Below, in pieces: positions 27,552-48,390 of a DNA stretch of 64,000 bases. The DNA comes from an uncultured Candidatus Saccharibacteria bacterium (lineage in GTDB: Bacteria; Patescibacteriota; Saccharimonadia; Saccharimonadales; AWTP1-31), in the NCBI GenBank assembly GCA_937903325.1, contig CALCZR010000058.1:129034-193033 (forward strand). The letters run 5' to 3'. Numbering within the stretch: the stretch's first letter is position 1; each line of letters opens with the position of its first letter. A program made the position numbers and the translations under genes. The notes beneath the pieces are model-generated. The model was not told the DNA's origin. It made no database searches and was given only the letters and a program-made list of their open reading frames with translations.

Positions 27552-27600
27552 TATGTATTATATGATCATATTTAGATCAAAGCCACCGGGTAGGTCTATA

Positions 27601-29118
27601 CTAGGCTCGCTTGCGAGCGAAGACATATCCGAGAGTTAGTAACCCGGCAAAAGAAGCAAACAACGAACCAACGAGAGAGACAGAATTAGCGCCGGTGTTT
27701 GGTGCTCCTGCATTACCGCTACCAGACGTAGAAGGAGTGGAGGCGCCACAGACAGCACCTTCGAACTGGAAGGCACCGACAGATGGGCAAGCGTTTGGAC
27801 GAGCGATTCCACGGGCGTCGGTGGTCACACCGAGTACTGAACCGCCAGCAGAAATAGCTGGAGAGCCAGGCAGAAGTGCACGGGTTGGAACGGCGCCGCC
27901 GTTGTCTTGGAGAGGACCAAGGGTAGAGTATACATTGGACACATTATGCTGATCGGTTGGAGAAGTAAACGAACCGGCACAACTGTTATCATCAAAAATA
28001 TTGTGACCTAGCGAGTTAACAGAAACTACTCCTGTCCCAAGTCCACTAGCTAATGCTGTGAAATCTCCTACAGCACAGTTATTTGATACTCCATTACTTT
28101 TGTTGTTTGCCAGAAGACTATTGCCAACCGAGATTGTACTTGTGGCGGTTGTACCTGCCCCAACGCCTAACGATGCTGCATAGAAAGCTGCCGAGGCTGC
28201 TAATCCGGTTGGGTCTAGTGTACCGTCTGTCCCAGTGACAGTGACGTTATTAATGATTGTATTCACAAGTGCATCACCATTATTGGAATAAGCGTTATTG
28301 GAGAACGGCGCAGCAATTGTAGTAGTCGAATAGACATTATCAATTGTAATATTAGCAGCGTTAGCGTTGAGCGTACCAAAACCACCAAAGACGTTATCCC
28401 ACAAGCCGACTGAAAGCATTACGCCAATAGTACCGCCCCCAGAAGTAGTATTTGAGATGTTTGCAATGGTAATATTTTGCAAGGATACATTTGATACCCC
28501 ACCTTGCCCCTGGTTAATTAACAACGCTCCAACAACATTCGCCGAACCTACAATGTCATGTACATAAATGTCACTAAGGTTAACCGTTCTTGTACCCGAA
28601 GAAAGGGATTGCAAGAATATAGCTTCAAATTCGCCACTTGCTGGCTGGGCATCGCTACCGTCTACTTCAATATTATTTATATTTAGAGTCTCATCTGTGT
28701 TAGATAAGATTGCGTAGCCGCTATACGCGATAACCTTTAAATTGCTGATGGTTGCAGATATCCCAGTACCGATTTCTATACCATTATACTGTCCATTGTC
28801 TCCATCAATTATGGTTTGGCTCATACCGGCACCGTTAATAACTATATCTTCGGTGATTACAGGTATGTCTGCAGTCAGCGTCTGAGTTCCCGACGGGATA
28901 TTGATGGTGTCATTGGTGCCGTAACTGCCTACAGCAGTACACCCAGACTGGTTGTTACCAGCGTTCACTGAGTCAATAGCAATAGCAAGCGTGCAACCAC
29001 CAGTTATATTGAGTGTTGCGGCATGAGCTCGGCCAGAACCAAAAGCCAGAACAGCCAAAAAGGCAAAAGCTGCCAGGACTAGTTTGTTTGTTTTACAGAG
29101 ATTAAGGATGTTTTGCAT
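27601..29118 (-). CDS. Secreted beta-helix surface protein, family member 3
   Basis: The family N-terminus starts at MQNILNLCKTNKLVLAAFAFLAVLAFGSGRAHA (ATG 29118, AGGAA RBS). Conserved C-terminal block, then GAPNTG, a TM and RKRA. Confidence 0.85.
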   Translation of the reverse strand: MQNILNLCKTNKLVLAAFAFLAVLAFGSGRAHAATLNITGGCTLAIAIDSVNAGNNQSGCTAVGSYGTNDTINIPSGTQTLTADIPVITEDIVINGAGMSQTIIDGDNGQYNGIEIGTGISATISNLKVIAYSGYAILSNTDETLNINNIEVDGSDAQPASGEFEAIFLQSLSSGTRTVNLSDIYVHDIVGSANVVGALLINQGQGGVSNVSLQNITIANISNTTSGGGTIGVMLSVGLWDNVFGGFGTLNANAANITIDNVYSTTTIAAPFSNNAYSNNGDALVNTIINNVTVTGTDGTLDPTGLAASAAFYAASLGVGAGTTATSTISVGNSLLANNKSNGVSNNCAVGDFTALASGLGTGVVSVNSLGHNIFDDNSCAGSFTSPTDQHNVSNVYSTLGPLQDNGGAVPTRALLPGSPAISAGGSVLGVTTDARGIARPNACPSVGAFQFEGAVCGASTPSTSGSGNAGAPNTGANSVSLVGSLFASFAGLLTLGYVFARKRA

Positions 29119-29189
29119 GCAGAGTATTCCTATCAATTTGTTTACGCTTATGCTTATTGTATCATTTGAGCCTTGCTCATATGTAATTG

Positions 29190-35100: not shown

Positions 35101-36005
35101 ACCGTTCCAGAAACCGAAACATCACTGAATGAAGAATTACTAGCCTGTGAAGCAATGGGCGCCAAAAGAACATCAGCATTGTCTGTTGCAAGATCTACAT
35201 TGGTAAGTTTTACATTTGTAACAGAAGCACCGATAGCGAGTCCGAACAACCCAGCCTCGGTGTCGTCCGTGAGTATCCGCTGATACAAACCATCTATGGC
35301 ATGACCGTTACCCTCCAATGTGCCTGTGAATTCTTGACCGTTGCTGCCATTTCCAACCGCCACAAATCCAGCACCACTATTCCAAGTGTTTGTTGCCGTG
35401 CAATCTATTGGTCCGGTTAATTCGTAATGGCCCGCTCTATCGTCTTGCATTTCTTGTAATTGTTCACACGTCGATATTTGGTATGGTTGTTCCGGACTGC
35501 CTAGACCAATCCCCGAAAAAGCCTGTGCTGCAGGAAAACCTACAATGGCAATAACTGCAATAAATACCGCTACACACACCTCCGCAACAGCCAACCAGTA
35601 GAATGCAGGTCTCCAGCGGTAATGAAAACGTGGAAACACAACCACACGCAAGTGGTGCAAAAAACCGTACTTAGTTTTTGGAGTAATTTTTATAAGCGGC
35701 TTCTTATGGTGCTGATAATCCATCCACATATATAAAAGAGAGCACACCGATAGAAGTCCAAGACTAGAAAGAGGTGACCACAAGAACGAAAAATTTGTTA
35801 TCTGGCTTGCGCTGGACTCAATTAACCGACTGACAAATTTACTAGATTCTGGTTTGACACGTAAGTAGATCAAAGCGGCAATTGAGGCCAGCATAACAAA
35901 AATAGGCAGCATCTTAACACGTTGCCGATACATCCTATCACTAAAAGCGCCAGCCCTATCTGCTAGGCGTTTACGCTGAACAATTTTTACAGTCGCCTTC
36001 GTCAT
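29190..36005 (-). CDS. Giant (2271 aa) membrane sensor histidine kinase with GLUG-repeat/FN3 ectodomain
   Basis: Three N-terminal TM segments. A roughly 1600-aa ectodomain has two modules opening with an IgA-protease-like motif (ISTCEQLQEM...FTGTLEGNGHAIDGL; ITECQQMHSV...FQGTLDGQGFSISDL), followed by many GGL(V/I)G GLUG-type repeats. Three FN3-like domains and a PT-rich linker follow, then a TM. H-box FLAIITHYLNTPLS, two more TM segments, then HATPase_c (ENAVQFS, DKGVGM, GLGLNL, GKGTTV). Confidence 0.85.
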   Translation of the reverse strand: MTKATVKIVQRKRLADRAGAFSDRMYRQRVKMLPIFVMLASIAALIYLRVKPESSKFVSRLIESSASQITNFSFLWSPLSSLGLLSVCSLLYMWMDYQHHKKPLIKITPKTKYGFLHHLRVVVFPRFHYRWRPAFYWLAVAEVCVAVFIAVIAIVGFPAAQAFSGIGLGSPEQPYQISTCEQLQEMQDDRAGHYELTGPIDCTATNTWNSGAGFVAVGNGSNGQEFTGTLEGNGHAIDGLYQRILTDDTEAGLFGLAIGASVTNVKLTNVDLATDNADVLLAPIASQASNSSFSDVSVSGTVFCEGTGGSVNASGFVGMFMFSTATRISVDMDITNNSYSNGDSGKAAFASGLMLVSYSSNISDSYSTGTITGAYTQGATTMFAGGLFGQALGGTVDNSYSSMAISITRSPELDPSVVLAGGFAAMAAAIEINNSFAVGSQTISTGPMEREAFGGFIGVGLYEENADPPFGVNISGSGNFIDASRTGLDNCIGGYVDSDFSVILPEQSPVGFCSAVNSGNSQPNYFYNNSTYAPFRVGGNQEWDFTNVWKTVTSSTPIFLSQALGAPTLPGKVRTITTNSVNPSSLTTQWLAPILDGNTPLTDYAVQYKLHGNSSWNSVSRSPSTDRSQLISGLVAGQLYDVRVAAVNAIGQGDWEVLENVSTSRLPSAPQNMIVTGVEQTNQFAPFSFPKLDWQAPDLGAPITDYVIQFKPRPGSDWAASQAELQNYGWAASNGTWTTVVDGTGTDLSFDSTNTTDTDLAQAIVLAIQAEARVIDSIDFRIAAVNSFGQGSWSSVQNFQVFIGITECQQMHSVLDQYRGSVFHLMNNIDCSDTLTWNGGEGWIPVGDPSTPFQGTLDGQGFSISDLQMNIPANASYQGVGMFSFAQSAEIRNLAVTNSSVASMLSNDVPAATLIASASPDTILDDITVAGDVIGEDFTGGIVGTLSDFDSTGFDGSVLWQDVSYTGVVQSPGTSGGILGMIYVNVEQSELTMQDIQSHGTILDSSLSGGIIGGAMSDANISLRNAISDMGSTGTCSEGAGGLIGITAVGTVAIEDSAYSGTIACPISGGNPDPAFAGGLVGGSYDSSLTITNSNSTGQIQLGEGSGGGLVGFSANQGTVSPADPEASLVRGVKIQDSSSSMDITISNGTVSYAGGLVGSATLLDIADSFASGDITVEDGNQVVRGVSGAAGGLVGGATGGNNLTSAMRIRNSYATGSIDFSAVSPVIDTLGGPIVGGAVGMVVGWSRIEGVHASGEVSVTLNQACQVDQCDDLAALAGGLLGTTIAVSQTATPSILRDSYATGLVSIGGKQVVGGLGGLAGSLQGYNHALQDVYATGSVGLAQDYVAGTGTLVRAGGLIGSISALGTATITRVHATGSVAGQGYFANQNGGAGAGGLIGIAQGQVAIRQAYATGSVQAGYALGGLIGVSGTIGSGTARVTLTDTYAAGVVSGAVTTLEYDDQNGYIELGASVGGLIGTADHTDITSSYATGVLGNEQPEFATETPEVAKNAYDSNTGGLVGGVSVTDVSGNPNPRSTITNSFSAATIPNTSNPNEGALVGRFTHVFSEGQGTITSSEADTMLVNNYFDASLSGDVPCANWLEVEGPVDPDADPILTQSIYNNTVVCHTVNAGNQSPNYFKNNTSNPPLDTWDFSLPVWYSHVAIYPTFTPGESLPGPPRNLGGTPTSSSMALSWDPPANDGGTPIINYRIQYRLKGTNEWLEFSHPPSTNTSATITGLTSGARYDFQVSAVNAVGQSSWVLGIYDVLVPGTPPTPTNPTTPTTPVTPTRPNRPTSSGGGPVTTIETPAGEEEPVLLDISKVPETELPAPFPLITKQPKVSLAPYFFLSWLLLLALYYAYRAWREYRYQKAMADLLTKVSTTRQSVSDFLAIITHYLNTPLSIMNGALELIASKHALQPEFIAQFKAKLVALQTTSNNLTYQAEQALAPGDRPVVSGEVLATSNKQLWVPLAGIAGLVTVTDLALYFSKSYDHSWGRYLNQLMWAFFGAIAAVVTFLAWKKQRQLHTQIKQRLATEQQLLDQKKSFVADAATSLASHASALQSGTVGLEQFPDTKLLTNGIGQLVQLSESLGKVSRFSVVGGPAPNISVQHAYEQNIAPLLSKLTAEKGVTVSNLLSSTSVVQMQPEELTQIIRSTVENAVQFSNANSAVTISSKSVGGKTLITVHDKGVGMSPEVMAHLFEPLTRGTDSTTFDHPGLGLNLYITRMILQKLGGGITVQSTPGKGTTVSMTIPQSHSSPTGFAPTVITPIS

Positions 36006-36107
36006 ATATACTCTTATGGTTACCTCTATTGTACTAGAGTTGCCGACTACTTACTGACATTTTGTTAATTTGCACACTGTAAGTACAATTAAGCACAAGG
36101 ACATACC

Positions 36108-36509
36108 ATGAAAGTTTCATCAAAATTTCACCCCATAACGCCGTATCTCTGTCTTATATTAGTTGCAATCGGGATAACTGCCTATGTCGCATATCACAAG
36201 GGTAATACCAACAGACAGGACCAATCAACCAGGCAAGCCAAAGCACAAACTCTAGACAGCGCCTTCGAGAGCTCAGCAAGCTTCTTTAAACGTAATATTA
36301 CTGGCACTGTCAGTAAAGTCAGCGCAAAACAGATTACCATTGTATCGCCTAACTCTACCGAACAAACCTTTAACCTTACCCCAAAAACCATATTCCAACG
36401 TGCAGGCCAGAAAATATCCGTAACCGATCTAAAGAAAGATCAGCAAGTAACTATCTTAAGAAGTATATCTGACTATTCACAAGCAGCTGGAATTACAATC
36501 AATAGGTAG
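36108..36509 (+). CDS. Hypothetical membrane-anchored protein (133 aa)
   Basis: N-terminal TM YLCLILVAIGITAYVAY. Divergent from the giant kinase gene; the only plus-strand gene in the cargo. Confidence 0.5.
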   Translation: MKVSSKFHPITPYLCLILVAIGITAYVAYHKGNTNRQDQSTRQAKAQTLDSAFESSASFFKRNITGTVSKVSAKQITIVSPNSTEQTFNLTPKTIFQRAGQKISVTDLKKDQQVTILRSISDYSQAAGITINR

Positions 36510-36510
36510 T

Positions 36511-36747
36511 CTAGTCAGCTAGTAGTAGCATCGAAACATCTTCGAAAAGAGCATGGTCTTGTGCTGTACGTAAATCGATGGGAATAGCACCTAGTCTTTC
36601 GAATTCACTCTGGGCCCAATCCAAACTCTGCTCGTACGTCATGCCTATATGAATATCGAGCATTTCAGGGGTCATACTAATTCTTTCAGGAGCAGCAAAC
36701 CCATTGGCCGCCGCCGCAAGATCCGCTTCCCCAATCTGTTCTAACAT
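36511..36747 (-). CDS. Small acidic protein, paralog of 24864..25097
   Basis: 78 aa; shared motifs as listed for the other copy. Lies directly downstream of member 4. Confidence 0.55.
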   Translation of the reverse strand: MLEQIGEADLAAAANGFAAPERISMTPEMLDIHIGMTYEQSLDWAQSEFERLGAIPIDLRTAQDHALFEDVSMLLLAD

Positions 36748-36781
36748 GTTACTAGTTTACTATTCTTTTCGATACGTGCAA

Positions 36782-38467
36782 CTATTCTTTAGCGTATTGC
36801 TTGGCTATAAAAATAAGCATGCTAAATCCAGAAGTAAGTGCAAATACGCCACTTAAGACAGACTCATGACCCGAGCCAGTGTTAGGGGCGGACGCACCGC
36901 CGGTAGATGAAGGATTCTGGGTTTGGTCTCCAAGAACACCCTGGTAGGCACCTACACTGTAATAACCAGTCCGAGCTACACCGCGAGCATCGGTTGTAAT
37001 ACCCAGCACTTGTCCGCCCGCGTTTATTGCAGGGGAACCAGGAAGGAGCTTAATTGTTGGTACGGGGCCGCCATTATCTGCAACTTCGTGCTCTATGGTG
37101 TCATATAAGTTAGGAACGATCGTATAGTCGGTGCACTTTGGATCATCGGCCATATTATTTCCGAGGTTCTCGGGTGTTAGGTCATAGCTGCCGCTCAGAC
37201 CAAGAGCAGAACCATCAAAATCAGAACGACAGCTATAGCTATTGCCGTTAAAGGTATTGTGAGCTATTAGGCTGTTCTGAGCCGAACCACCCGATTCAGC
37301 ATCGATTGGCTGGCTATTGCCATCCAAAGTCGCACCAACTATGAAGAATGCTGGTATTGATCCAAAAGGACTAGGCGTAATTTGTGTCACACTGTTGCCT
37401 ACAACAGTAGAGTTAGTGAAGTTTATTTTTTCAGGCGCGTTAATGAGTAATCCGAAAAACCCACTGACGGAAGCGTGGTTATCAAACTCGTTAATAGCTT
37501 GATTATTCACGACCGTCACATTTGTTAAGTTCAAGCCAGGGTTGATATTGGCGACGCCAAGATTAAAACCGGTGACATAGGCAGGCTGAAAGGGGTTGCC
37601 ACTGCTTGATGCCTGTGTCGGCTGCGAGATATTTCCAGCGACCGTAACCGCATCTATTCTAATGTCTGCGAAAGCACTGTTCTCCTTATAATCAACGTTA
37701 ACACCTGCGTCACCCACGGATTGATTATCCATAACGGTTGTTCGTTCCAATGTTAGTGCTAGTGAAGCCGCAGTAGCTGAATTAGCTGCAACAGACAGAC
37801 CAGCAACTTCATCAACATCAGCACCCGAGTTATTATTGACTTGAGAATCTGCAACGGTTATTGAGATGTCATCAGTACTATTGACTGCATTAGCAATTAG
37901 GTACAACCCAACGGAATTACCTGTTGCAACATTGTCATGTATATTCGTATTGGTCACAGTGATATGTACTGCTCCAATTCTGACACCAAAACTGGAATTC
38001 TCTACCTCTACATCATCAATAGTTATGTCGTGAGCACCGTTTATATCAATTGCGTAGGGCGAGGCATCAATTATTTTAAATCCATTGAGCGTTTTATCGA
38101 TGGTGTTTGCAGCGTTTGCTGTAAAGCCTCGATAACCATTCGCGTCAATAGTTGTAACTGCCTTGCCAGCACCCTGGACAACGATGTCTGCACCAGAAGT
38201 AAACGAATTCAAATTTTCAGAAAGTGTAATCGTTCCTGCTGGCAGATTAATAGTATCGTTGGTTCCATATGCTGTACCAGTTTTTACGCAACCATTTCCA
38301 TCTACTGCATTATTAGTTGCATCAATTGCTTCGTTGAGTGTGCAGTTGCTATCTACTGCTAGCGTGGCTGCATGCACCCGACCCGAACCAAAGGCAAGCA
38401 CTGCCAAGAAGGCGAAGATTGCCAGAATGAGTTTATTTGTTTTTGATAGATTCAGAATGCTTTGCAT
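36782..38467 (-). CDS. Secreted beta-helix surface protein, family member 4 (most divergent, 561 aa)
   Basis: Signal peptide MQSILNLSKTNKLILAIFAFLAVLAFGSGRVHA. C-terminal DNGGPVPTIKLLPGSPAINAGGQVLGITTDARGVAR, then SAPNTG, a TM and KQYAKE. Confidence 0.85.
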   Translation of the reverse strand: MQSILNLSKTNKLILAIFAFLAVLAFGSGRVHAATLAVDSNCTLNEAIDATNNAVDGNGCVKTGTAYGTNDTINLPAGTITLSENLNSFTSGADIVVQGAGKAVTTIDANGYRGFTANAANTIDKTLNGFKIIDASPYAIDINGAHDITIDDVEVENSSFGVRIGAVHITVTNTNIHDNVATGNSVGLYLIANAVNSTDDISITVADSQVNNNSGADVDEVAGLSVAANSATAASLALTLERTTVMDNQSVGDAGVNVDYKENSAFADIRIDAVTVAGNISQPTQASSSGNPFQPAYVTGFNLGVANINPGLNLTNVTVVNNQAINEFDNHASVSGFFGLLINAPEKINFTNSTVVGNSVTQITPSPFGSIPAFFIVGATLDGNSQPIDAESGGSAQNSLIAHNTFNGNSYSCRSDFDGSALGLSGSYDLTPENLGNNMADDPKCTDYTIVPNLYDTIEHEVADNGGPVPTIKLLPGSPAINAGGQVLGITTDARGVARTGYYSVGAYQGVLGDQTQNPSSTGGASAPNTGSGHESVLSGVFALTSGFSMLIFIAKQYAKE

Positions 38468-38504
38468 GTGTTAGTTCCTATGTTAACGCTTGTGTTTAAT
38501 AGGT

Positions 38505-38533
38505 AGTCTACCCCCCCCGGAAATTTTGAGCAA
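38505..38533 (-). promoter_or_regulatory. Candidate promoter with G8 tract in spacer (member 4)
   Basis: TTGCTC-AAAATTTCC-G8-TAGACT, spacer 17 nt. C run 38511-38518. Confidence 0.5.
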
Positions 38534-38544
38534 GTCTAAGCTAC

Positions 38545-39243
38545 CTAGAAGGCTTCTGCGACAACAATCACCCGAGAGTCATAGGTTTTACTATCTTTGT
38601 CGAACTTACCAGTGCAGGTAATTAGGTTAAGCTGCTTAGAAATGGTCTTGTCACGCACAAAGAGAGCCGTATCGGCCTCTTTGGTGGAAACTGTTTGGAC
38701 TTGTTTGACTTTGAACCTTCTAACGCTTTTATCGCCAAATGTAACGCTAAACTTGTCGTCTGTTTTAAGTTTGCCAATGTTATAAAAGATACCTTTGGCA
38801 TACAGCCCATGTACATGGCCATCCAGAATGCTCAGACCATCTGCACCAGGCAAAACACTGCCCGTGTACCAGCCAGCCATATGCACATTATTAGGCACTA
38901 CCATCCGGTTTTCTTTATCTACGCCTACCTGCTGAATGAAGCCCCCTGCCTTAACAGTTGGAAGCTGGATTGATAGCGGTTTATCTGCGGTAACACTATA
39001 GTTTTTTGGGGGGAGTTGCTCACTGGGCTCATCAGTAGAAACGGTAGCCACGGTGTGCCCAGCCGGTACGCCAGCATGCTGGATTTTGTACCATTTGCGC
39101 ACAGCATTTACGCCGATACCTATCAACACTACGCCAACAATAAGAGCCACGAGCCGTGTTTTTTGCCGAGTTGAAAGCGACCGCCACTTACCCTTTGCGA
39201 TGTTCTTGGTGGTTTTCTTTGATCTTTTCTTATTGAGAGCCAT
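38545..39243 (-). CDS. Sortase (island copy 1)
   Basis: N-terminal TM; LDGHVHG (His), LITCTGKFD (Cys), SRVIVV (Arg). Starts 4 nt after the member 5 stop. Confidence 0.85.
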   Translation of the reverse strand: MALNKKRSKKTTKNIAKGKWRSLSTRQKTRLVALIVGVVLIGIGVNAVRKWYKIQHAGVPAGHTVATVSTDEPSEQLPPKNYSVTADKPLSIQLPTVKAGGFIQQVGVDKENRMVVPNNVHMAGWYTGSVLPGADGLSILDGHVHGLYAKGIFYNIGKLKTDDKFSVTFGDKSVRRFKVKQVQTVSTKEADTALFVRDKTISKQLNLITCTGKFDKDSKTYDSRVIVVAEAF

Positions 39244-39247
39244 GTAC

Positions 39248-40720
39248 CTATTTTACCGCAACTCGCTTGCGGAATGCATAGGTAATCATACTTATGCCAA
39301 GTGCACTTGCAATAATAGTCATCAGGGTTGAAGCAGTTTTTGCTCCGGTGTTTGGGGCGGCAGCACCGCCAGCATTTGCATTGGTTGTAGTTACTGCGCA
39401 GACTGCCCCTTCGAATTGGAAGGCTCCAACAGATGGACAAGTGTTTGGGCGAGCAATACCGCGGGCGTCGGTGGTAACTCCCAGAACTGAACTACCAGAT
39501 GAAATCGCGGGGCTTCCAGCCAACAGTGCGCGAGTAGGGACTACTCCACCATTGTTTTGGAGCGGGCCAAGGGTTGAGATGATATTGATGACATTTTGTT
39601 GGTCGCCTGTTTGATTAAAGTTCGCACAACTAGCGTCATCTGATATGTTGTAGCCAGCTGAAGTTATGGAGGTTGTAACCGTACCTTGGCCACCAATATT
39701 GCCGGTCATATCACCGAACGAACAGTTGGACGGCGACCCGTTGCTAAGGTTGTCTGCCATAAGGCTATTGCTCACCGTAACTGCTACATCAACACTGTCG
39801 CCAGCTTGATATGCGTTACCTGCCGCATAGAATGCCGCGGTGTTAAGCCCGGCCGTAAAGCCAGTCCCAGCAATTCCGCGTGTACCCGTGATAGTAATGT
39901 TATTGACCGTGGTGTTGATGGTTGCATTACCACCGTTCATACTGCCATAGCTTGCAAATGGCGCAGTCAAACCAGTGCTTGTAATGTCATCGACTGTCGT
40001 GTTGGTAATCGTCGATGTCAAGGCAGCATTATCACCACTAGCAACCATGATAATGCCATTCACACCGTTACCACCATTGTTATGCACGTCGGCAAGCGTA
40101 ACATTACGCAAACTAGCATTTACGACAGCGTCCGTCCTGGCCTCTACCCAGAATCCCTGTACATAACCACTTGAACTGTTAATCCCATGTATATAGATGT
40201 TTTCCGCTTCAACGGTATACGTTCCTGCAGTATTAGTCGAATACTGAATTCCAATGGTTCCAGTAGCATCTTGCCCATCTATCTCTATATTAGACAGCTG
40301 AACATTACGACTTAGCCTAACTGCGGTATCGGAAAACGCTGTAATCTTTAAGTCCCTAATAGTAACGTCAGTGGTTGCTGTAAGAACTCTATATTGACCC
40401 ATGTCGCCACTAATCGTTGTCTGGTTCATACCTACGCCAGCAATCGTTACAGGTACTGAAATATTGTTAACGTCACTGGTTAGCGTTTGTGTTCCTGCAG
40501 GAATATTAATGGTGTCGCTCGTTCCATAGCTTGTGCCAGTACAACCGCCCGTGTTCGTAGCATCATTTATGGAGGTGATGGCGTTGAATAACGAACAGCC
40601 GCCAGACACTGTTAGTGTTGCAGCATGTGCCTGACCGGAGCCAAGACCAACCACAGCCAGGAAGGCAATGGCTGCCAAAATGAGTTTGTTTGTTTTTGTT
40701 AGATTTAAAATACTTTCCAT
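39248..40720 (-). CDS. Secreted beta-helix surface protein, family member 5
   Basis: MESILNLTKTNKLILAAIAFLAVVGLGSGQAHA; conserved C-terminal block; AAPNTG, a TM and RKRVAVK. Confidence 0.85.
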   Translation of the reverse strand: MESILNLTKTNKLILAAIAFLAVVGLGSGQAHAATLTVSGGCSLFNAITSINDATNTGGCTGTSYGTSDTINIPAGTQTLTSDVNNISVPVTIAGVGMNQTTISGDMGQYRVLTATTDVTIRDLKITAFSDTAVRLSRNVQLSNIEIDGQDATGTIGIQYSTNTAGTYTVEAENIYIHGINSSSGYVQGFWVEARTDAVVNASLRNVTLADVHNNGGNGVNGIIMVASGDNAALTSTITNTTVDDITSTGLTAPFASYGSMNGGNATINTTVNNITITGTRGIAGTGFTAGLNTAAFYAAGNAYQAGDSVDVAVTVSNSLMADNLSNGSPSNCSFGDMTGNIGGQGTVTTSITSAGYNISDDASCANFNQTGDQQNVINIISTLGPLQNNGGVVPTRALLAGSPAISSGSSVLGVTTDARGIARPNTCPSVGAFQFEGAVCAVTTTNANAGGAAAPNTGAKTASTLMTIIASALGISMITYAFRKRVAVK

Positions 40721-40755
40721 TTATAATTCCTACTTTACGCTAGTGTTTAAATGGT

Positions 40756-40783
40756 AGTCTACCCCCCCGTAAGTTATTTGCAA
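40756..40783 (-). promoter_or_regulatory. Candidate promoter with G7 tract in spacer (member 5)
   Basis: Identical to the member 2 promoter and lies inside the exact repeat. C run 40762-40768. Confidence 0.5.
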
Positions 40784-40933
40784 GAACACCTGTTTGAACC
40801 ACTCGTATGTATTACCCTTACGGTTGACGATTGTGGCACATTTGAGGTAAAATGTAGCTACAATTGATTCGCTTTCCGAACTGTCACCGTATGGTGCGCG
40901 TGCCTGGGACAACCAGGATAGGAAGCGAATTTT

Positions 40934-41554
40934 TTATTTGAAGTACCAAATATCTTCAGTGCGCTTGTTGATAACTTTTAGGTAGATATCGCTGTCAGTT
41001 TTACGCTTTTGAGTTGTTCGTAAAAGACTACCCGCAACCATATCTGCCAGCTGAATCAAGTTATCATTCTTAGAGTTAACAAACTTCATATCTTTTATTA
41101 TGCTACCGTCTGGATTAGCCTGCTGGCGAAAATACGTTGTTGCCGCTTTCTTGTAGGACCGGTCTTCGTGACCATCAAGACGAATCCGTCCATCGGTAAT
41201 CTTGCCAGCACTTTTAGAGAGCACCTCTTTGATCATGTAGTTATAGAATTTATCCTTGTTTCTCCTAAGTTCAACGCTTCTGATGATAGACTTATCGGCG
41301 ACTATTGCCCGAACCCGGAACTTACAACTTTTTATCTCGTTTAAAAAAGCGAGACGTATATCTTTACTAGCTTTGTTGAACTTAAACTCATGATCGTCTC
41401 GCCATCCAAGCGAACGACGCAATCGCTTGATCTTAAGTGCCGTTTCTTCGGCATCAAGGTTGTCATCAAAGACAATGCAGGCAATAACAAAGTGTGTGCT
41501 CGAACCCTTATCAAATTTAAAGCCCGGATCTCCTGAATCATCTATGAATACCAG
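40934..41554 (-). CDS. DUF3800 domain protein, copy 2 (identical to copy 1)
   Basis: Identical sequence to 26931..27551. Confidence 0.65.
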   Translation of the reverse strand: MVFIDDSGDPGFKFDKGSSTHFVIACIVFDDNLDAEETALKIKRLRRSLGWRDDHEFKFNKASKDIRLAFLNEIKSCKFRVRAIVADKSIIRSVELRRNKDKFYNYMIKEVLSKSAGKITDGRIRLDGHEDRSYKKAATTYFRQQANPDGSIIKDMKFVNSKNDNLIQLADMVAGSLLRTTQKRKTDSDIYLKVINKRTEDIWYFK

Positions 41555-41603
41555 TATGTATTATATGATCATATTTAGCTCAAAGCTACTGGACAGGTCT
41601 AAA

Positions 41604-43100
41604 CTAGGCTCGCTTGTGAGCGAAGACATAACCGAGAGTTAATAGCCCGGTAAAAGAAGCAAGCAACGAACTTACGAGAGAGACAGGGTTAGCGCCGGTG
41701 TTTGGAGCTCCGGCATTAGTTCCTGCGTTAGTCGTAGAGGCCGCACAGACAGCTCCTTCAAATTGGAAGGCTCCAACGGAAGGACAATCGCTTGGGCGGG
41801 CAATACCACGAGCATCTGTAGTTACACCGAGTACTGAACCGCCCGAAGCTATGGCTGGTGAGCCAGGAAGGAGAGCACGAGTCGGAACAGCACCACCATT
41901 GTTCTGGAGAGGGCCGAGAGTGGAGATGATGTTATTGACGTTTTGTTGGTCGCCTTCTTCAGTAAAGGAGGTACAAGTAGCATCGTCGGAGATGTTGTGA
42001 CCGAGGGAGGCAGTAGTCGCAATTCCAGTTCCCGTCCCGCCAAAGCTACTAGTAAAGTTGGCGGACTCACAGTTGGAAGAGTTAGTATCAGTTAGGTTAT
42101 CAGCGAACAGACTATTACCCACACGAAGCGTAGAGGTTGCTACATCGCTACTACCCAACCCTGCTGCGGCTGAATAGAAAGCTGCTGATTTAATACCAGC
42201 AATCGGGAAGATAGCACCAGTCGAACCTCGGTTCCCAGTAATAGTGCTATTATAAACATCTACTGTTACATTTGCCGTGCCCCCACTAGCGAAAGCAAAG
42301 GTTGCATACGGCGCGCTAATTTCGCTGGCGCTTAGGTTGCTAAGAGTTGCATTACTGATAGTGCCATTGATATTGCCTACTGCACCAAAAGTGGGTACCG
42401 CCCCAATACCTAAGACAAACCCATCGAACGAGCCGCCGGAGTTGCTGGAATCGGCTAGAGTTATATTACTAAGATCGGCGGTTGTTGTTCCACCCCCGCT
42501 TTGGTGAACCGAGAATCCATACATAATATCATGATCATCATTAATGTCATGTAGGTAGATATTATTGCTTGTGATTGTCTTACTAGATGAAGTACTGTTG
42601 ACGATAATTATGCTATAGAAAGCGTCTGTGGCCCCCGTACCATCAACTTCAATATTCTCTAGTGTTACGTCACAGTCCTCGGTGCTGACCGCAGACTCTC
42701 TATATGCCGTCACTGTTAGATCAGATATAGCGATAGTTACATCTTGAGCTTCAAAGGCAACAGCATCACTGTCACCATCAACAATAGTATCGCCAATACC
42801 AGCCCCCTGTATCGTTACATCTTCAGTAATAGCGGGTAGACTTGCGGTAAGCGTAATGGTTCCTGCAGGAATAGTGATCGTGTCATTTGTGCCATATGAA
42901 TCAGGAGATACCACTGCAGTACAGCCAGATTGATTTGCGCCAGCGTTTACTGAGTTGATGGCAATTGGTAGCGTACAGCCTCCGGTCACGTTGAGCGTTG
43001 CAGCGTTAGCTCGTCCAGAACCAAATGTAAAAACAGCAAGAAAGGCAAAGGCGGCAAGAATTAATTTTGTTGTATTTGTTAGATTCAGAATGCTTTGCAT
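41604..43100 (-). CDS. Secreted beta-helix surface protein, family member 6
   Basis: MQSILNLTNTTKLILAAFAFLAVFTFGSGRANA; conserved C-terminal block; GAPNTG, a TM and HKRA. The C-terminus is closest to member 3. Confidence 0.85.
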   Translation of the reverse strand: MQSILNLTNTTKLILAAFAFLAVFTFGSGRANAATLNVTGGCTLPIAINSVNAGANQSGCTAVVSPDSYGTNDTITIPAGTITLTASLPAITEDVTIQGAGIGDTIVDGDSDAVAFEAQDVTIAISDLTVTAYRESAVSTEDCDVTLENIEVDGTGATDAFYSIIIVNSTSSSKTITSNNIYLHDINDDHDIMYGFSVHQSGGGTTTADLSNITLADSSNSGGSFDGFVLGIGAVPTFGAVGNINGTISNATLSNLSASEISAPYATFAFASGGTANVTVDVYNSTITGNRGSTGAIFPIAGIKSAAFYSAAAGLGSSDVATSTLRVGNSLFADNLTDTNSSNCESANFTSSFGGTGTGIATTASLGHNISDDATCTSFTEEGDQQNVNNIISTLGPLQNNGGAVPTRALLPGSPAIASGGSVLGVTTDARGIARPSDCPSVGAFQFEGAVCAASTTNAGTNAGAPNTGANPVSLVSSLLASFTGLLTLGYVFAHKRA

Positions 43101-43137
43101 GATTTAGTTCCTATGTTAACGCTTGTGTTTAATAGGT

Positions 43138-43166
43138 AGTCTACCCCCCCCCGATATTTTGAGCAA
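43138..43166 (-). promoter_or_regulatory. Candidate promoter with G9 tract in spacer (member 6)
   Basis: TTGCTC-AAAATATC-G9-TAGACT, spacer 17 nt. C run 43144-43152. Confidence 0.5.
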
Positions 43167-43177
43167 GTCTAAGCTAC

Positions 43178-43861
43178 CTAGTAGGCTTCAGCCACGACAA
43201 TCACCCGAGAGTCATAAGTTTTGCTATCTTTATCAAATCGACCAGTGCAGGTTATGAGGTTGAGCTGCTTGGGAATGGTCTTGTCGCGTACAAAGAGAGC
43301 GGTATCAGCTTCTTTGGTAGAAACTGTTTGGACTTGTTTGACCTTGAACTTTCTAACGCTTTTATCGCCGTAAGTTACCGTGAATGTATCACTAGTCTTG
43401 AGCTTACCCAGGTTGTAGAAGATTCCTTTAGCATATAGCCCATGCACATGCCCGTCGATAATACTGAGGCCAGCATCACCAGGCAAGGAGCCCTTGGTGT
43501 ACCAGCCAGCCATATGGACGTTGCTTGGTACTACCATCTGATTATCTTTGTCTACGCCTACCTGCTGGATAAAACCTTCTGTCTTAATTGTTGGCAACTG
43601 AATAGACAATGGCTTATCTTCTGGAACGCTGTAACTGTCCGGTACTGGCTGTTCGCTGGGAGCATCGGTGGATTCTGTTGCTACGGTGTGTCCAGTCGGT
43701 ACACCGGCATGTTGAATGAAGTACCAGTTTCGTATTGCATTCAGGCCAACGCCAACAAGTAATATGCCTACTATGAATAACGCAAAGCGAATATTTCGTT
43801 GATTCTTAGAGACTGCTCCACGCTTTGATGAATTACTTCTACGCTCCTTGAATCGAACCAT
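43178..43861 (-). CDS. Sortase (island copy 2)
   Basis: Paralog of 38545..39243 with a near-identical C-terminal half (VRKFKVKQVQTVSTKEADTALFVRDKTI.KQLNLITCTG.FDKDSKTYDSRVIVVAEA). Starts 15 nt after the member 7 stop. Confidence 0.85.
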   Translation of the reverse strand: MVRFKERRSNSSKRGAVSKNQRNIRFALFIVGILLVGVGLNAIRNWYFIQHAGVPTGHTVATESTDAPSEQPVPDSYSVPEDKPLSIQLPTIKTEGFIQQVGVDKDNQMVVPSNVHMAGWYTKGSLPGDAGLSIIDGHVHGLYAKGIFYNLGKLKTSDTFTVTYGDKSVRKFKVKQVQTVSTKEADTALFVRDKTIPKQLNLITCTGRFDKDSKTYDSRVIVVAEAY

Positions 43862-43876
43862 AGGTACTAATATAGA

Positions 43877-45376
43877 CTAGCTCGAGCGTTGTTGCTTGTG
43901 GAATACGTATGTTAGTAGTCCAATGCCGAGCATGCTGGCAAGCACATTGAGTATTTGTGCTACAGATCCAACGCCCGTGTTTGGAGCTCCTGCGTTACTA
44001 CCGCCAGATGCAGATGGAGTAGAAGCACCGCAGACTGCACCTTCATATTGGTAGGCACCTACAGATGGGCATTCATCTGGGCGTGCTACACCACGGGCAT
44101 CTGTAGTAATACCGAGGACAGAACCGCCAGCAGAAATTGCCGGAGAACCAGGAAGAAGTGCACGAGTTGGGACTGCGCCTCCGTTGTTTTGAAGAGGGCC
44201 AAGGGTGGAAATGATGTTATTAACATTTTGTTGATCGCCTGGTTGGTTGAAACCAGCGCAACTGGCATCGTCTGAGATATTGTAGCCAGCAGAAGTAATG
44301 ATGCTATTTACCGTGCCGACTCCGCCAACGTTACCTGACATATCTCCATAGGAACAGTTCGACGATACACCGTTATTTAGGTTGTCGGCCATAAGACTAT
44401 TGCTAACTGTAATGCTAACGTTGGCCTCATCACTAGGACCTCCGGCAAGTCCGGCGGCATAAAAAGCGGCCGTGTTTAACCCTGCAGTGATACCGCTACC
44501 CGCAAAGCCACGCACACCAGTAACGGTGATGTTATTGATATTAGTCGTTGCGGTGGAATCGCCATTTGTCGCTGCAGCAAATGTTGCAAACGGCGCTACG
44601 ATAAGTGAACTCGTGATGTCGTGAATAGTTGCGTTACTAATAACAGACGTGATAGTGCCGCCCCCATTACCTGGATAACCAGCGGATAGAATAATCCCGT
44701 TCACGCCAGCCAAAGTATTGTGGACATTAGCAAGTGTAATGTTGTTGATGTTTACATCATAATGCCCACCAGCTCGTGAGCCGACGCTGAACCCCTCTGC
44801 ATATTGCCCGTTTGTGCCAGTAAGACTATGGATATAAATATTCTCGGCACTGACATCTAACGAAGCACTGTTACTCGAAAAAATTATAATGCCATTTGCA
44901 TTACCTGTCTGGCCGGTGCCGTCTACTTCGATATTCTCGAGGACTACATCGCAGTTGACCAGCTGAATTGCTGTCGCCTTACTTGCAGTAACTTTTAGAT
45001 CGGTAACGGTAACAGATCCTGATGCCATACCGGTTTCAAACACCTTCCATGCATTACCGTTAATTGTGGTTTGGCTCATGCCAGCACCATGTATTTCCAC
45101 TGACTCTGTAAGCAGCGGCAGGTCGGCCGCCAACGTAACGGTACCGGCAGGAATGGTAATGGTGTCACTCGTCCCGTAGCTAGCACCCGTTGCTGTGCAA
45201 CCAGACTGGTTTGCTGCAGCATTAACAGAGTTGATAGCAATTGGCAGCGTGCAGCCACCCGTTACATTAAGAGTTGCAGCATGTGCCCTACCCGAACCAA
45301 AAGCCAAGACTGCCACAAAGGCAAAAGCCGCTAGGACTAATTTGTTTGTTTTAGTTAGATTCAGAATACTGAGCAT
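43877..45376 (-). CDS. Secreted beta-helix surface protein, family member 7
   Basis: The family N-terminus begins at MLSILNLTKTNKLVLAAFAFVAVLAFGSGRAHA (ATG 45376). The track ORF's 44-aa upstream extension runs through the promoter and G tract. GAPNTG, a TM and HKQQRSS. Confidence 0.85.
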   Translation of the reverse strand: MLSILNLTKTNKLVLAAFAFVAVLAFGSGRAHAATLNVTGGCTLPIAINSVNAAANQSGCTATGASYGTSDTITIPAGTVTLAADLPLLTESVEIHGAGMSQTTINGNAWKVFETGMASGSVTVTDLKVTASKATAIQLVNCDVVLENIEVDGTGQTGNANGIIIFSSNSASLDVSAENIYIHSLTGTNGQYAEGFSVGSRAGGHYDVNINNITLANVHNTLAGVNGIILSAGYPGNGGGTITSVISNATIHDITSSLIVAPFATFAAATNGDSTATTNINNITVTGVRGFAGSGITAGLNTAAFYAAGLAGGPSDEANVSITVSNSLMADNLNNGVSSNCSYGDMSGNVGGVGTVNSIITSAGYNISDDASCAGFNQPGDQQNVNNIISTLGPLQNNGGAVPTRALLPGSPAISAGGSVLGITTDARGVARPDECPSVGAYQYEGAVCGASTPSASGGSNAGAPNTGVGSVAQILNVLASMLGIGLLTYVFHKQQRSS

Positions 45377-45412
45377 GGTGAGTTTCCTTATATAATTTAT
45401 AGCGTTACCGGT

Positions 45413-45442
45413 ATTGTACCCCCCCCCGAATATAGTGCGCAA
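45413..45442 (-). promoter_or_regulatory. Candidate promoter with G9 tract in spacer (member 7)
   Basis: TTGCGC-ACTATATTC-G9-TACAAT, spacer 18 nt. C run 45419-45427. Confidence 0.5.
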
Positions 45443-45534
45443 ATTATTCTGGAAGATCATGTCTCTTTCCTTTGGAAACAGACCAACCATTATTTGCTTT
45501 GCAAACACTGGTTACAAAATAAGGACTTCACATA

Positions 45535-46314
45535 CTAACGTTCTATGAATAGAAACTCAAATTTAACACTAACCCAGTTATTGTCTAGCTCTCGTTTAGT
45601 CAAATTCTGTAGTCTTCGCTCAAGAGCCTTTGCGTCACAAGCTATGAGCACTACGGGAAAGTCTTTTTCGGTGGCTTTCTGCCACTTTTCTGATTCGGCA
45701 TAGGTAATGTAGCGTCTTATGCTGTTTCTAATCCTCCAGTAGGGCGCACTGGCCTCATAGAAGCTTAGGAAATAGTCTGGAGCGGTTAGTTGAAGCTTGC
45801 GTACAACGGCGCTGTCTTTAATATCTTCGTTCTTTTTTAGGTACGCATCGGTTAGGTCTCTTGGGAGCTTATATTTCAAGCTAGGCAATTCGCTCTTGCT
45901 GAAGAACTGAAATTGCTTGGGGTAATTTTGTTTGATGAATACGTAGGCTTTAAAGACGTTTAGCCTGTGTTGGATATGAACGTCGTCTTTGTTCTTGTCA
46001 TAATAGGCTTGCTTGAGTACGTTTGGATCTACAAATGGCTGCTGTCTGAGTATTTGTATTCCTTTTGGTAGTAAGTGATATGTAGCCGGTTTACCAATGA
46101 TCTTATAGCTTTTGTCATAGTTCTGCCCGATGTATCCTTGATCTACTAATATCTTTAGTCTTGTTAGTATTACTCTAGTATGTTTAGCTCCTTGACTTGA
46201 GGCAATGAGTTGAGCTGTGGTATAGCGAAATTTATAGAGTGTTGTGAGTAGTTGAAGTTGATGTGAGTTTATAGGTCGGTGTTTGGTGTTGGTAGGTTGT
46301 GGTGGTGTATTCAT
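45535..46314 (-). CDS. Replication-relaxation-family-like wHTH protein
   Basis: The N-terminal INSHQLQLLTTLYKFRYTTAQLIASSQGAKHTRVILTRLKILVDQGYIG fits the replication-relaxation pattern seen on Gram-positive plasmids and ICEs. Motif-level call only. Confidence 0.5.
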   Translation of the reverse strand: MNTPPQPTNTKHRPINSHQLQLLTTLYKFRYTTAQLIASSQGAKHTRVILTRLKILVDQGYIGQNYDKSYKIIGKPATYHLLPKGIQILRQQPFVDPNVLKQAYYDKNKDDVHIQHRLNVFKAYVFIKQNYPKQFQFFSKSELPSLKYKLPRDLTDAYLKKNEDIKDSAVVRKLQLTAPDYFLSFYEASAPYWRIRNSIRRYITYAESEKWQKATEKDFPVVLIACDAKALERRLQNLTKRELDNNWVSVKFEFLFIER

Positions 46315-46332
46315 AAGTAGAGTTTATATACG

Positions 46333-46354
46333 CCTATCTATGTTAATAGATAGG
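46333..46354. promoter_or_regulatory. Perfect 9-bp palindrome in divergent intergenic region (operator or oriT-like candidate)
   Basis: CCTATCTAT-GTTA-ATAGATAGG lies 19 bp upstream of the replication-relaxation gene start, in an AT-rich spacer shared with the recombinase gene. Confidence 0.3.
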
Positions 46355-46640
46355 TAAGTAAAGATGCAAGCCCTTAACTCCTTATTATTTAATATTTATA
46401 TATCGTATCGGCAGGATATCCACAGTTGTATTTAATACCTTGGTAATACACTTGTAGGTATACTTATTAGTGGTATATACTAAGCTTATAAGTGGGGGTA
46501 GCCATGATACAGAAAGAACCAATCCAGCCGAGCCCAGAAGACACTTCCGAAGCGCCGTTGTCAGATAATGAGCGTATCGATCTCATCGCTAATTTACTTT
46601 TGGATTACTTAGATGAAGAGCAATCGGGAGAAGAAGGGTC

Positions 46641-48356
46641 ATGCAAGACGACGCAAACAAAAATGCTGTAGCCGCGATTAGAGTCTCGACGACCAAGCAG
46701 GGTACGGAGGGTGACTCTCCCGAAGCTCAGAAAGAGCAAATTGAGCGCTTTGCTTTAACCCGTGGTATCACCATAAAAAAGTTCTTTGTCTTTTTGGAAT
46801 CCGCCAGTAAAGAGCAGCAGCCAATGCAGGAAGCTATTGATTACTGCAAGAATCCTAAGAACGGCATTGAACTGTTTATCATAAAATCGATTGACCGTTT
46901 TACTCGAGGCGGATCACTATCGTACGACCTGCTCAAAAACCAGCTGGAAGCAAATAATGTGTCATTGGTAGACATTTACGGCGTGATTAGCTCGCGGCAG
47001 GTGAATACCCTAGAACACCTCGGCTTTGAATATAAGTGGAGTAAATACTCTCCAAGCAAGAAATCCGAGATACTAGAGGCCGAGCGTTCCAAGGATGAAC
47101 TGCGGGATATTATGAGTCGTATGATTGGGGCTGAAATCCGCTATACCCAACTCGGTTTTTGGATGCGACAACCGCCGTTCGGTTTTGTCAGTGAGAAAGT
47201 CGAAACGAACAATGGAAAACGTTGCATATTACAACCCCATCCGACTGAAGCCCAGTACATTACAAAGATTTTCGATCTGCGTGCTCGTGGCACGATGCGT
47301 GATATGGAGATTGTTGAGGAAGTTAATAAGCTAGGCTACCGAGGACGGGTGCACTATGTTCGTGATAAGAGCGATCGATCTAAAGTTTTAAAGAAGCGCG
47401 GAGGCGATCCCTTAACCCTCAAGGCCTTAGATCGTATCGTCACTAATCCAATCTACGCTGGGATTAATGCCGAGAAGTGGACAGACGGCAAGCCGGTACA
47501 GTGCGCTTTTAAAGGCCTAGTATCTATTGACCAGTTCAACCGAGCTAACAAAGGCAAAAAGGTCATCACCAAAGACGAGCAAGGTGACATTGTCATCATA
47601 AAAAGAGAGCTAGAGCCACGGTATGCGACCATCAAAGGTTCTCGTAACCCTGATTTTCCGTACCGCAAGTTTGTGCTGTGCCCAGAATGCCACAGACCGC
47701 TTATCGGCAGTGCTTCACGCGGCAAGTCCGGTAAACATTATCCGGCCTATCACTGTGACAAACGAGGCCACTATTTCCGTGTGCCTAAAAAGGAATTGGA
47801 GGACAGAGTGAACGAGTTTATTAACGGTATTCGTGTCTCGCCGGAGCAGGTCGATAGGGTTCTGAACGTTATTGAAGCTGAGTGGAAGAAACGGGAACAA
47901 GCACTCAAACAAGAGCTTGAGACGCTTGATAGCCACATTCAGGGCTTACGTACTGAAATCGAAATGACTGGAAGCAAGATTAAGCTCGTAAGCAACGAGA
48001 CAGCAATTAAATATATAGAGGAGGACATTGTGCGTATAGAACAACAAATTAAAGAGTTGGAGGCTACTAAGATGAAGAAGATAAACCGTAAACCTATTAA
48101 TTGGCAACGCTTGAAGGCTAGGGTTCGTTACCTGGCGGAACACTTTGATGAGCTACTGTTACAACAGATTGATCCGGTCAAAAAAGCACAGTTTTTTGCC
48201 GCATTATTCAATAATTTTCCAACATTTGAAGATTTAGCCAGCGGAACACCCGGCAAGCCAAACTTTACAGGGGTGAATCCAATATTTTCTCTCGCTAAAT
48301 TACCTACTACCCATTTGGTGACCTCACCGGGAATCGAACCCGGATTGCCGGGATGA
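46641..48356 (+). CDS. Large serine recombinase (integrase)
   Basis: Resolvase catalytic motif AAIRVSTTKQ, recombinase domain, zinc ribbon CPECHRPL...YHCDKRGH, coiled-coil region. The last 14 codons (48315-48356) are antisense to tRNA-Glu. Confidence 0.9.
   Translation: MQDDANKNAVAAIRVSTTKQGTEGDSPEAQKEQIERFALTRGITIKKFFVFLESASKEQQPMQEAIDYCKNPKNGIELFIIKSIDRFTRGGSLSYDLLKNQLEANNVSLVDIYGVISSRQVNTLEHLGFEYKWSKYSPSKKSEILEAERSKDELRDIMSRMIGAEIRYTQLGFWMRQPPFGFVSEKVETNNGKRCILQPHPTEAQYITKIFDLRARGTMRDMEIVEEVNKLGYRGRVHYVRDKSDRSKVLKKRGGDPLTLKALDRIVTNPIYAGINAEKWTDGKPVQCAFKGLVSIDQFNRANKGKKVITKDEQGDIVIIKRELEPRYATIKGSRNPDFPYRKFVLCPECHRPLIGSASRGKSGKHYPAYHCDKRGHYFRVPKKELEDRVNEFINGIRVSPEQVDRVLNVIEAEWKKREQALKQELETLDSHIQGLRTEIEMTGSKIKLVSNETAIKYIEEDIVRIEQQIKELEATKMKKINRKPINWQRLKARVRYLAEHFDELLLQQIDPVKKAQFFAALFNNFPTFEDLASGTPGKPNFTGVNPIFSLAKLPTTHLVTSPGIEPGLPG
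48316..48331. repeat. att core, right copy (TGGTGACCTCACCGGG)
   Basis: Exact match to 19444-19459. It forms the 3' acceptor/CCA end of tRNA-Glu. Confidence 0.6.
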
Positions 48357-48390
48357 GAACCCGATTTCCTAACCGTTAGAAGATGAGGCC
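48316..48390 (-). tRNA. tRNA-Glu(CUC), CCA encoded
   Basis: The reverse complement GGCCTCATCTTCTAACGGTTAGGAAATCGGGTTCTCATCCCGGCAATCCGGGTTCGATTCCCGGTGAGGTCACCA folds as a 75-nt cloverleaf. Anticodon loop TTCTCAT. Confidence 0.85.

Follow-up and report, generated by a model that had tools for sequence, protein, structure and literature searches.

A stretch of 64,000 nucleotides (nt) from an uncultured Candidatus Saccharibacteria bacterium (contig CALCZR010000058.1, positions 129,034 to 193,033), hereafter the window, carries a genomic island in which seven paralogous proteins ending in an APNTG pentapeptide are encoded together with two sortases. The paralogs are probably Sec-exported beta-helix surface proteins, for which APNTG, a transmembrane (TM) helix and a basic tail would form a wall sorting signal that is read by the class-F-like sortases of the island. 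Support for the view of APNTG as the signal of a dedicated sortase comes from comparative genomics. The genes concerned are as follows.

23310-24785, minus strand: paralog 1, secreted, with a beta-helix and a choice-of-anchor Q domain; APNTG at 23400-23414, TM segment, terminal KRN.
25215-26717, minus strand: paralog 2; APNTG at 25311-25325, TM segment, RKRTALK; on TIGR01167 the tail reaches 18.2 bits (cutoff 15.9).
27601-29118, minus strand: paralog 3; APNTG at 27691-27705, TM segment, RKRA.
36782-38467, minus strand: paralog 4, the most divergent (33-37% identity to the others); APNTG at 36875-36889, TM segment, KQYAKE.
39248-40720, minus strand: paralog 5; APNTG at 39344-39358, TM segment, RKRVAVK.
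41604-43100, minus strand: paralog 6; APNTG at 41694-41708, TM segment, HKRA.
43877-45376, minus strand: paralog 7; APNTG at 43973-43987, TM segment, HKQQRSS.
38545-39243, minus strand: sortase 1, class-F-like, with an N-terminal TM anchor and a His/Cys/Arg triad (NF033748, 107.4 bits, with 31 bits or less for the other classes; PF04203, expectation value (E) 5e-18).
43178-43861, minus strand: sortase 2, likewise class-F-like and sharing 74% identity with sortase 1 (NF033748, 115.7 bits; PF04203, E 6.4e-19).

The anatomy and the conservation of the paralogs can be read directly from their translations. Each consists of a signal peptide, a variable centre, a conserved C-terminal module and an APNTG tail. 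Pairwise identity is 33-58% overall; by region it falls from ~80% (N-terminus) to 18-34% (middle), rises to 72-77% (C-terminal module) and is 30-50% in the tail beyond the motif. The signal peptide is nearly identical across the family (M[EQL]SILNLTKTNKLILA.FAFLAV..FGSGRAHA/AT, where the slash marks the cleavage site). At the opposite end, all seven proteins carry [AGS]APNTG followed by 29-31 mostly hydrophobic residues with a basic end, which is the tripartite layout of an LPXTG-type sorting signal (TG pentapeptide, hydrophobic segment and basic C-terminal tail). A first-pass annotation, made from the sequence of the window, had described this layout for seven paralogs, and the open reading frame (ORF) translations confirm it for every one. 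The long ORF starts given there for paralogs 3 and 7 are to be discarded, since conserved Met codons at 29118 and 45376 are the real starts.

The pentapeptide occurs exactly seven times in a six-frame translation of the window, each time at the C-terminus of a paralog. Its first position is Ala in 7/7 paralogs, not the Leu of LPXTG. The earlier claim that Leu is replaced by Ala and that the X position is fixed as Asn thus stands for the window, but has to be relaxed for the relatives, where APSTG, APDTG, APQTG and APGTG are also found and Asn is strongly preferred. The codons of the motif vary synonymously among the copies (GCA/GCT/GCC, CCA/CCG/CCT, ACC/ACA/ACT/ACG and GGC/GGT/GGA for Ala, Pro, Thr and Gly), so APNTG is kept as a peptide and not as recently copied DNA.

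The choice-of-anchor Q domain (NF041518) lies directly before the tail in the three paralogs tested (E 1e-15 to 1e-17, 55.6-62 bits, cutoff 25). The paralogs resemble other choice-of-anchor Q proteins in that the domain precedes the sorting signal and homologs swap anchor types, as the family name says; they differ in that the xPNTG anchor and its pairing with a class-F-like sortase appear in none of the family models of the library. The AlphaFold2 model of paralog 5 (mean predicted local distance difference test, pLDDT, 82) has a right-handed parallel beta-helix at residues 35-355 and a C-terminal TM helix at 465-489. A fold search of the PDB with this model returned weak, generic matches to beta-helix glycan-active proteins (E 1.7e-3 or weaker), which do not allow a specific enzymatic function to be given to the paralogs. 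Existing models recognise the tails at the margin. With TIGR01167, five isolated tails gave 18.2 and 19.3 bits for two (over the cutoff of 15.9), 15.6 for another and no reported score for the last two, and with PF00746 the maximum was 19.5 bits against a cutoff of 20. Full-length paralogs have no match to the generic LPXTG models at E 0.01 or better. No tail-specific model was found in NCBIfam or Pfam, where the tails are matched by generic LPXTG models alone, at borderline scores.

The first-pass annotation had also placed two paralogous sortases 4 and 15 nt after paralogs 5 and 7, and this is exact: the stop of paralog 5 is separated from the start of sortase 1 by 4 nt (TAG gtac ATG), and that of paralog 7 from sortase 2 by 15 nt. 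The next paralog starts 77 nt downstream of each sortase (paralog 4 after sortase 1, paralog 6 after sortase 2). A promoter and terminator scan that covered 36000-46700, in which counts were no higher than the shuffle expectation, predicted no terminator between the substrate and sortase genes. The spacing and the absence of a predicted terminator, taken by themselves, suggest that substrate and sortase would be coupled in an operon.

The catalytic triad proposed earlier for the two enzymes is confirmed, although the His motif of sortase 2 reads IIDGHVHG and not LDGHVHG. His138, Cys205 (in LNLITC) and Arg219 are invariant in an alignment of 20 sequences with identity down to 39%. As judged from profile scores and conserved residues, the island sortases are members of a class-F-like clade of Patescibacteria. 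Both have PF04203 matches that exceed the Pfam gathering score. Among the NCBIfam class models, class F is best (E 5e-31 to 1e-33, 107-116 bits) and is ahead of the next class model by more than 70 bits, the other classes giving 34 bits or less at 1e-7 or weaker; the class F cutoff (NF033748) is 166 bits, of which both enzymes fall short. Seven sortase relatives, four of which are named 'class F sortase' by NCBI, score 100-116 bits and are likewise under that cutoff. Arg219, 14 residues past the catalytic Cys, is retained, and the Asn that has been reported at the catalytic Arg position of actinobacterial class F enzymes (PMC8703055) is not present. The label "class-F-like" follows from these two features, the sub-cutoff class F scores and an Arg where Asn is reported for actinobacterial class F.

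The AlphaFold2 model of sortase 2 (pLDDT 87.9) has a TM helix at residues 19-50 after a basic N-terminus, followed by a sortase barrel. Foldseek comparison of the model with solved sortases gave E values down to ~1e-9, and the top structural matches are pilus-polymerising class C sortases. Class assignment by solved structures was rejected, as classes A, C, D and E all score alike (1e-9 to 1e-7) and no recognisable class F structure is among the matches. Between the TM helix and the barrel, residues 64-72 hold an S-T-D-x-P-S-E motif in a high-confidence part of the model. Its Pro68 and Glu70 are invariant across the 20 sequences and so are conserved like the catalytic residues. The motif may form a lid or an appendage on the N-terminal side, in contact with the active site.

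Linkage between motif and enzyme was counted across 79 genomic loci that hold sortase relatives at 34-88% identity. In these loci and the window, 85 clade sortases were located, of which 66 have a same-strand upstream neighbour; the last 60 residues of this neighbour were searched for xPx[TS]G. The linkage is a direct observation: 49 of the 66 neighbours carry the motif C-terminally, as APNTG (25), VPNTG (11), IPNTG (3), TPNTG (2) or one of eight other variants seen once each. The first position is A in 28, V in 13, I in 3, T in 2 and S, N or Y in 1 each. Gaps between neighbour and sortase are typically -119 to +24 nt. Moreover, among 1180 ORFs of at least 150 residues, 72 have PNTG within their final 60 residues, and internally it is found 5 times in 320,373 residues. 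These counts support the view that the clade sortases look dedicated to an xPNTG signal.

A second line of evidence comes from the beta-helix family itself. Homologs of paralog 5 were searched and C-termini were tabulated for 120 listed homologs, of which 67 end in APNTG, 6 in APSTG, 4 in VPNTG, ~30 in LA[DEN]TG, LS[EK]TG or LGDTG and 2 in LPDTG. In a 33-sequence alignment all of these motifs fall into one set of columns, with an invariant TG. Members of the family thus exchange one anchor for another, and it is the anchor slot that APNTG occupies, which supports the identification of the paralog C-termini as sorting signals. The anchors differ in their surroundings: a sortase is adjacent in three of four sampled xPNTG homologs (immediately downstream of P0146, P0157 and P0181) versus none of six LAxTG/LSxTG homologs, which have no sortase within 6-10 kb (Fisher p ~0.03). 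With this contrast, the linkage in the sampled loci and the enrichment of PNTG at C-termini, the earlier proposal that APNTG is the signal of dedicated sortases is upheld at the level of comparative genomics.

A single metagenome-assembled genome (L002, L005) has both the xPNTG and the LAxTG signal, hence two pathways side by side within a cell. The LAxTG signal is presumably handled by a stand-alone sortase, for which the window holds one candidate.

6295-7548, plus strand: third sortase, outside the island, of the stand-alone type (PF04203, E 9e-26; TLITC, His and Arg present).

The position of this gene agrees with the first-pass annotation, which had set it outside the mobile element, the island spanning 19444-48331. 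The enzyme fits no class model (class C 75 bits, class E 54 bits, all sub-cutoff), and no sorting-signal genes were found near its relatives in 15 metagenome loci. The absence of clustered substrates is consistent with a stand-alone enzyme and does not by itself identify the motif that the third sortase would read. The LAxTG homologs P0148, P0182, P0203 and P0173 (contexts among L080-L084 and L089) lie closely downstream of an IS1595-family transposase, and three of these four have a convergent gene of ~261 amino acids (aa) directly downstream, with weak TrmB/Replic_Relax matches. This is a mobile context different from that of the tRNA-Glu island.

Several observations weigh against the dedicated sorting of APNTG proteins to the wall. 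The motif is missing in 17 of the 66 upstream neighbours, and there is no sortase within 6 kb of the VPNTG homolog P0196. In L002 and L005, LAxTG proteins too are encoded within one or two genes of a class-F-like sortase, so the pairing may not be exclusive. Because the class F scores are sub-cutoff, specificity is not transferable from P. acnes SrtF (LPXTG). Lastly, 29 of the 49 linked relatives end 1-16 residues past xPNTG and have no TM helix; judging from these sequences, the mechanism of the clade may not always be classical membrane-retained sorting.

The TM-less proteins belong to the choice-of-anchor U family (NF041766), in which signal peptides are present and the basic tail is absent, and they end in ...TDGGxLDxDGxANGxIVDPVGLxxxVxG[AV]PNTGLGG plus a few residues. 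Examples are L010:7315-9957, L040:5079-9968, L073:5448-8621, L039:2339-3421 and L072:4156-5790. Stop-codon readthrough or fusion of these genes with the sortase was considered and rejected, given the mixed stops (TAG 20, TAA 11, TGA 8) and the inconsistent downstream frames, and also given topology, which would put the sortase domain in the cytoplasm.

The choice-of-anchor U proteins fit classical wall sorting poorly, and they are one of two points in favour of an alternative in which class-F-like sortases process APNTG without attachment to peptidoglycan, by ligation to a protein or surface polymer, by polymerisation or by release from the membrane. The other is that, in structure, the sortase model best matches the pilus-polymerising class C enzymes. 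However, the Foldseek scores of the four classes matched are little different, beta-helix proteins are not pilin-like, and the seven window proteins have a complete tripartite signal typical of wall anchoring, such that processing of this kind is unlikely. It is more doubtful still that the stand-alone sortase at 6295-7548 anchors the APNTG proteins as a housekeeping enzyme, with the island sortases having some other or redundant role. Housekeeping sortases often tolerate motif variation and the third sortase is intact, but this account sits badly with how closely xPNTG genes adjoin class-F-like sortases throughout the phylum, the genes often overlapping, with the lack of adjacent sortases at the LAxTG homologs, and with an island that would take its own sortases into new hosts. 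That APNTG is uncleaved, a conserved linker inherited by plain tail-anchored membrane proteins, is highly improbable: shared ancestry of the paralogs alone would give some conservation, but the motif is invariant amid diverging linker and TM sequence, its codons vary synonymously, LAxTG or LPDTG signals can take its place, and unrelated choice-of-anchor U passengers (28% or less identity) end in the same motif beside the same sortase clade.

Wall sorting by the island sortases, the preferred reading, would proceed as follows, with the chemistry taken from established sortase enzymology. The signal peptide (...GSGRAHA/AT) would route the paralogs to Sec export and then be cleaved, and the precursor would be held in the membrane by its TM helix and basic tail. 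A membrane-anchored sortase of type II topology, with Cys205, His138 and Arg219, would cut APNTG between Thr and Gly. In this reaction, attack of the Cys on the Thr-Gly bond would yield a thioacyl intermediate, and an amine of a peptidoglycan precursor would resolve it to leave the beta-helix protein covalently on the wall. Two residues of the motif, Ala in the first position and Asn in the third, would set the APNTG substrates apart from the LAxTG proteins of the same organisms, making the two pathways orthogonal.

A broader proposal is that the class-F-like sortases of Patescibacteria constitute an undescribed specificity class that reads [AVI]PNTG, is orthogonal to LAxTG, and in the lineage of the window is carried as a portable, island-borne kit of adhesin and sortase. 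It includes two modes of action, one with the full tripartite signal, as in the window, and one with a minimal signal of xPNTG plus 1-16 residues and no membrane anchor. Taken as a whole, the two modes included, this proposal is tentative, and some part of it may well fail. If the minimal mode is true, it would imply either that substrates are captured without being retained in the membrane or that they are ligated to something other than peptidoglycan.

Variant sorting motifs are read by several known sortases: S. aureus SrtB uses NPQTN in IsdC, C. difficile SrtB uses (S/P)PXTG, and the class E sortase of Actinobacteria uses an LAXTG signal. As in the class E system, a changed motif here would define a second, parallel pathway, and homologs of the window proteins carry LA[DEN]TG at the same position. 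In contrast, Pro is replaced in LAXTG, whereas APNTG keeps Pro and replaces Leu, and the LAxTG homologs are not sortase-linked. In B. cereus, BcpB naturally carries IPNTG, which has a dedicated pilus sortase, SrtD, as its reader (PMC9126251) and shares its PNTG core with APNTG. The SrtD-BcpB, SrtB-IsdC and C. difficile SrtB systems are all like that of the window in that a variant pentapeptide sends a few co-encoded substrates to a dedicated, non-housekeeping sortase. They differ in that those enzymes are of class B or C and from Firmicutes, whereas here they are class-F-like and from Patescibacteria, with Ala or Val in the first position of the motif and beta-helix proteins as substrates.

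P. acnes SrtF, the sole characterised class F enzyme, uses LPXTG (PMC8225981), and what class F sortases otherwise do in the cell is described as unknown (PMC13251363). The island sortases are like class F enzymes in their best class model, small size and N-terminal TM anchor; they are unlike them in their sub-cutoff scores, in keeping the catalytic Arg and in a linked motif of [AVI]PNTG rather than the LPXTG of SrtF. Recognition of APxTG or XPKTG has been described for the engineered S. aureus SrtA variants F40 and F1-21 (PMC9126251). These share the same first-position change, but are laboratory-evolved mutants of the beta6/beta7 loop, whereas the window has predicted natural APNTG-linked enzymes of an unrelated class. 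The literature searched describes no natural APNTG, VPNTG or xPNTG sorting signal, the matches being to adiponectin transgenic mice, engineered SrtA and general reviews, and no account of the APNTG/class-F-like sortase pairing was found there. Literature on sortases of the candidate phyla radiation, as searched, notes an enrichment of sortases there and nothing further. By analogy, the APNTG system would behave like the known dedicated pairs, from which it is set apart by its enzyme clade, its motif, its phylum and its genomic packaging.

This packaging is an island of 28.9 kb (19444-48331) that is integrated at tRNA-Glu and flanked by 16-nt direct repeats. Its boundaries and remaining genes are as follows, with locus L001 being the closest relative (88% sortase identity).

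19444-19459, plus strand: left island boundary, direct repeat TGGTGACCTCACCGGG, an exact copy of 48316-48331; L001 homology stops at 19444.
19570-20052, plus strand: PLD-like protein, island cargo (PF13091, E 7.5e-11; 96% identity to the L001 counterpart).
20570-23239, plus strand: type IV coupling protein (TraG/TrwB-like), split (PF10412 and PF12696 matches).
26931-27419, minus strand: DUF3800 ORF, copy 1 (PF12686, E 2e-7).
29190-36005, minus strand: 2271-aa membrane protein with a large ectodomain that includes two FN3 domains and a C-terminal HisKA/HATPase histidine kinase (Pfam).
40934-41422, minus strand: DUF3800 ORF, copy 2 (866-nt identity with copy 1).
45535-46314, minus strand: replication-relaxation family protein, Replic_Relax (PF13814, E 4.5e-6).
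46641-48356, plus strand: large serine recombinase that adjoins the tRNA attachment site (PF00239 and PF07508; 96% identity to the L001 copy).
48316-48390, minus strand: tRNA-Glu(CTC), predicted by ARAGORN; its 3' end, 48316-48331, is the right-hand repeat.

The boundaries of the island are observed directly. The 16-nt repeat is the 3' end of tRNA-Glu and is present in exact copies at both ends, where chance would be expected to give none, and DNA homology to L001 breaks off exactly at 19444 and 48390. Taken together, the repeats, the tRNA-Glu gene and the loss of L001 homology at these two positions establish that the island is integrated at tRNA-Glu. Mobile-element genes recognised by Pfam flank the array, with the PLD-like and coupling proteins at one end and Replic_Relax and the serine recombinase at the other, and the housekeeping genes are outside. 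The "element" of the first-pass annotation is thus delimited as a 28.9-kb island by the tRNA-Glu repeats, the recombinase and the loss of synteny. Its suggestion of an element that comes with a sortase-substrate pair of its own is also sustained, with seven APNTG paralogs and two sortases inside the island, whose mobility is predicted.

The island is like tRNA-integrated islands and integrative mobilisable elements in its tRNA 3' repeats at both ends, tRNA-adjacent recombinase, relaxase-like gene and coupling protein. It is unlike them in having a serine recombinase in place of a tyrosine recombinase and a coupling protein with an in-frame stop. A complete type IV secretion system is not on the island. 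The stop is a TAG at 22076-22078 that interrupts the TraG/TrwB-like protein, which in L001 is intact at 896 aa; the gene may be a pseudogene, in which case the island is no longer self-mobilising, or the stop may be a sequencing error. A Replic_Relax gene is also found upstream of paralog-sortase pairs in L001, L086 and L088. The last 41 nt of the plus-strand recombinase ORF (48316-48356) overlap the minus-strand tRNA-Glu gene, the 16-nt attachment repeat included.

L001 has the same island with just two paralogs and one sortase, and there the sortase 2 homolog runs directly into the paralog 1 homolog. Relative to L001 (at its 10677-10694), the window has ~18.2 kb extra (24998-43185), which holds five paralogs, the second sortase, the two DUF3800 genes and the giant histidine kinase. 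The paralog-sortase array therefore grows or shrinks between close strains. A repeat spaced by 4633 nt within the array indicates that a unit of paralog, sortase and paralog was duplicated in tandem. Genes of the array are conserved at their ends and variable in between (repeat families D1-D4), a pattern that would favour cassette recombination.

The DUF3800 copies have 866 identical nt, within a 1258-nt duplication of 93.8% identity, while the flanking paralogs are 33-58% identical as proteins; the sequences suggest a recent duplication or gene conversion inside the array. A DUF3800 homolog in L002 has 207 aa, and the window ORFs may begin further upstream. The ectodomain of the 2271-aa protein (~130-1780) is homologous to passenger domains of xPNTG substrates that other Saccharibacteria encode near class-F-like sortases (L045, L021, L071, L036, L053 and others), and in L038 a 2289-aa homolog of this giant kinase is directly upstream of a class-F-like sortase. 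By homology, the product of 29190-36005 seems to join a surface-protein module to a sensor kinase.

Class F is the least understood sortase class, and the locus and its 49 related pairs supply a predicted motif, [AVI]PNTG, and named substrates for a large class-F-like clade in Patescibacteria. Standard annotation overlooks xPNTG signals, so the sortase substrates of the phylum are probably under-counted. A natural APxTG-specific enzyme could also serve orthogonal protein ligation, for which the literature reviewed has engineered SrtA variants alone. Saccharibacteria are obligate epibionts, and their surface proteins likely mediate attachment to the host. An island-borne beta-helix array that has its own sortases, and whose copy number changes from one close strain to another, suggests that the surface repertoire can be transferred. 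If an adhesin-plus-sortase kit is indeed carried on a tRNA-integrating island, it could shift surface and host-attachment specificity between epibiont strains.

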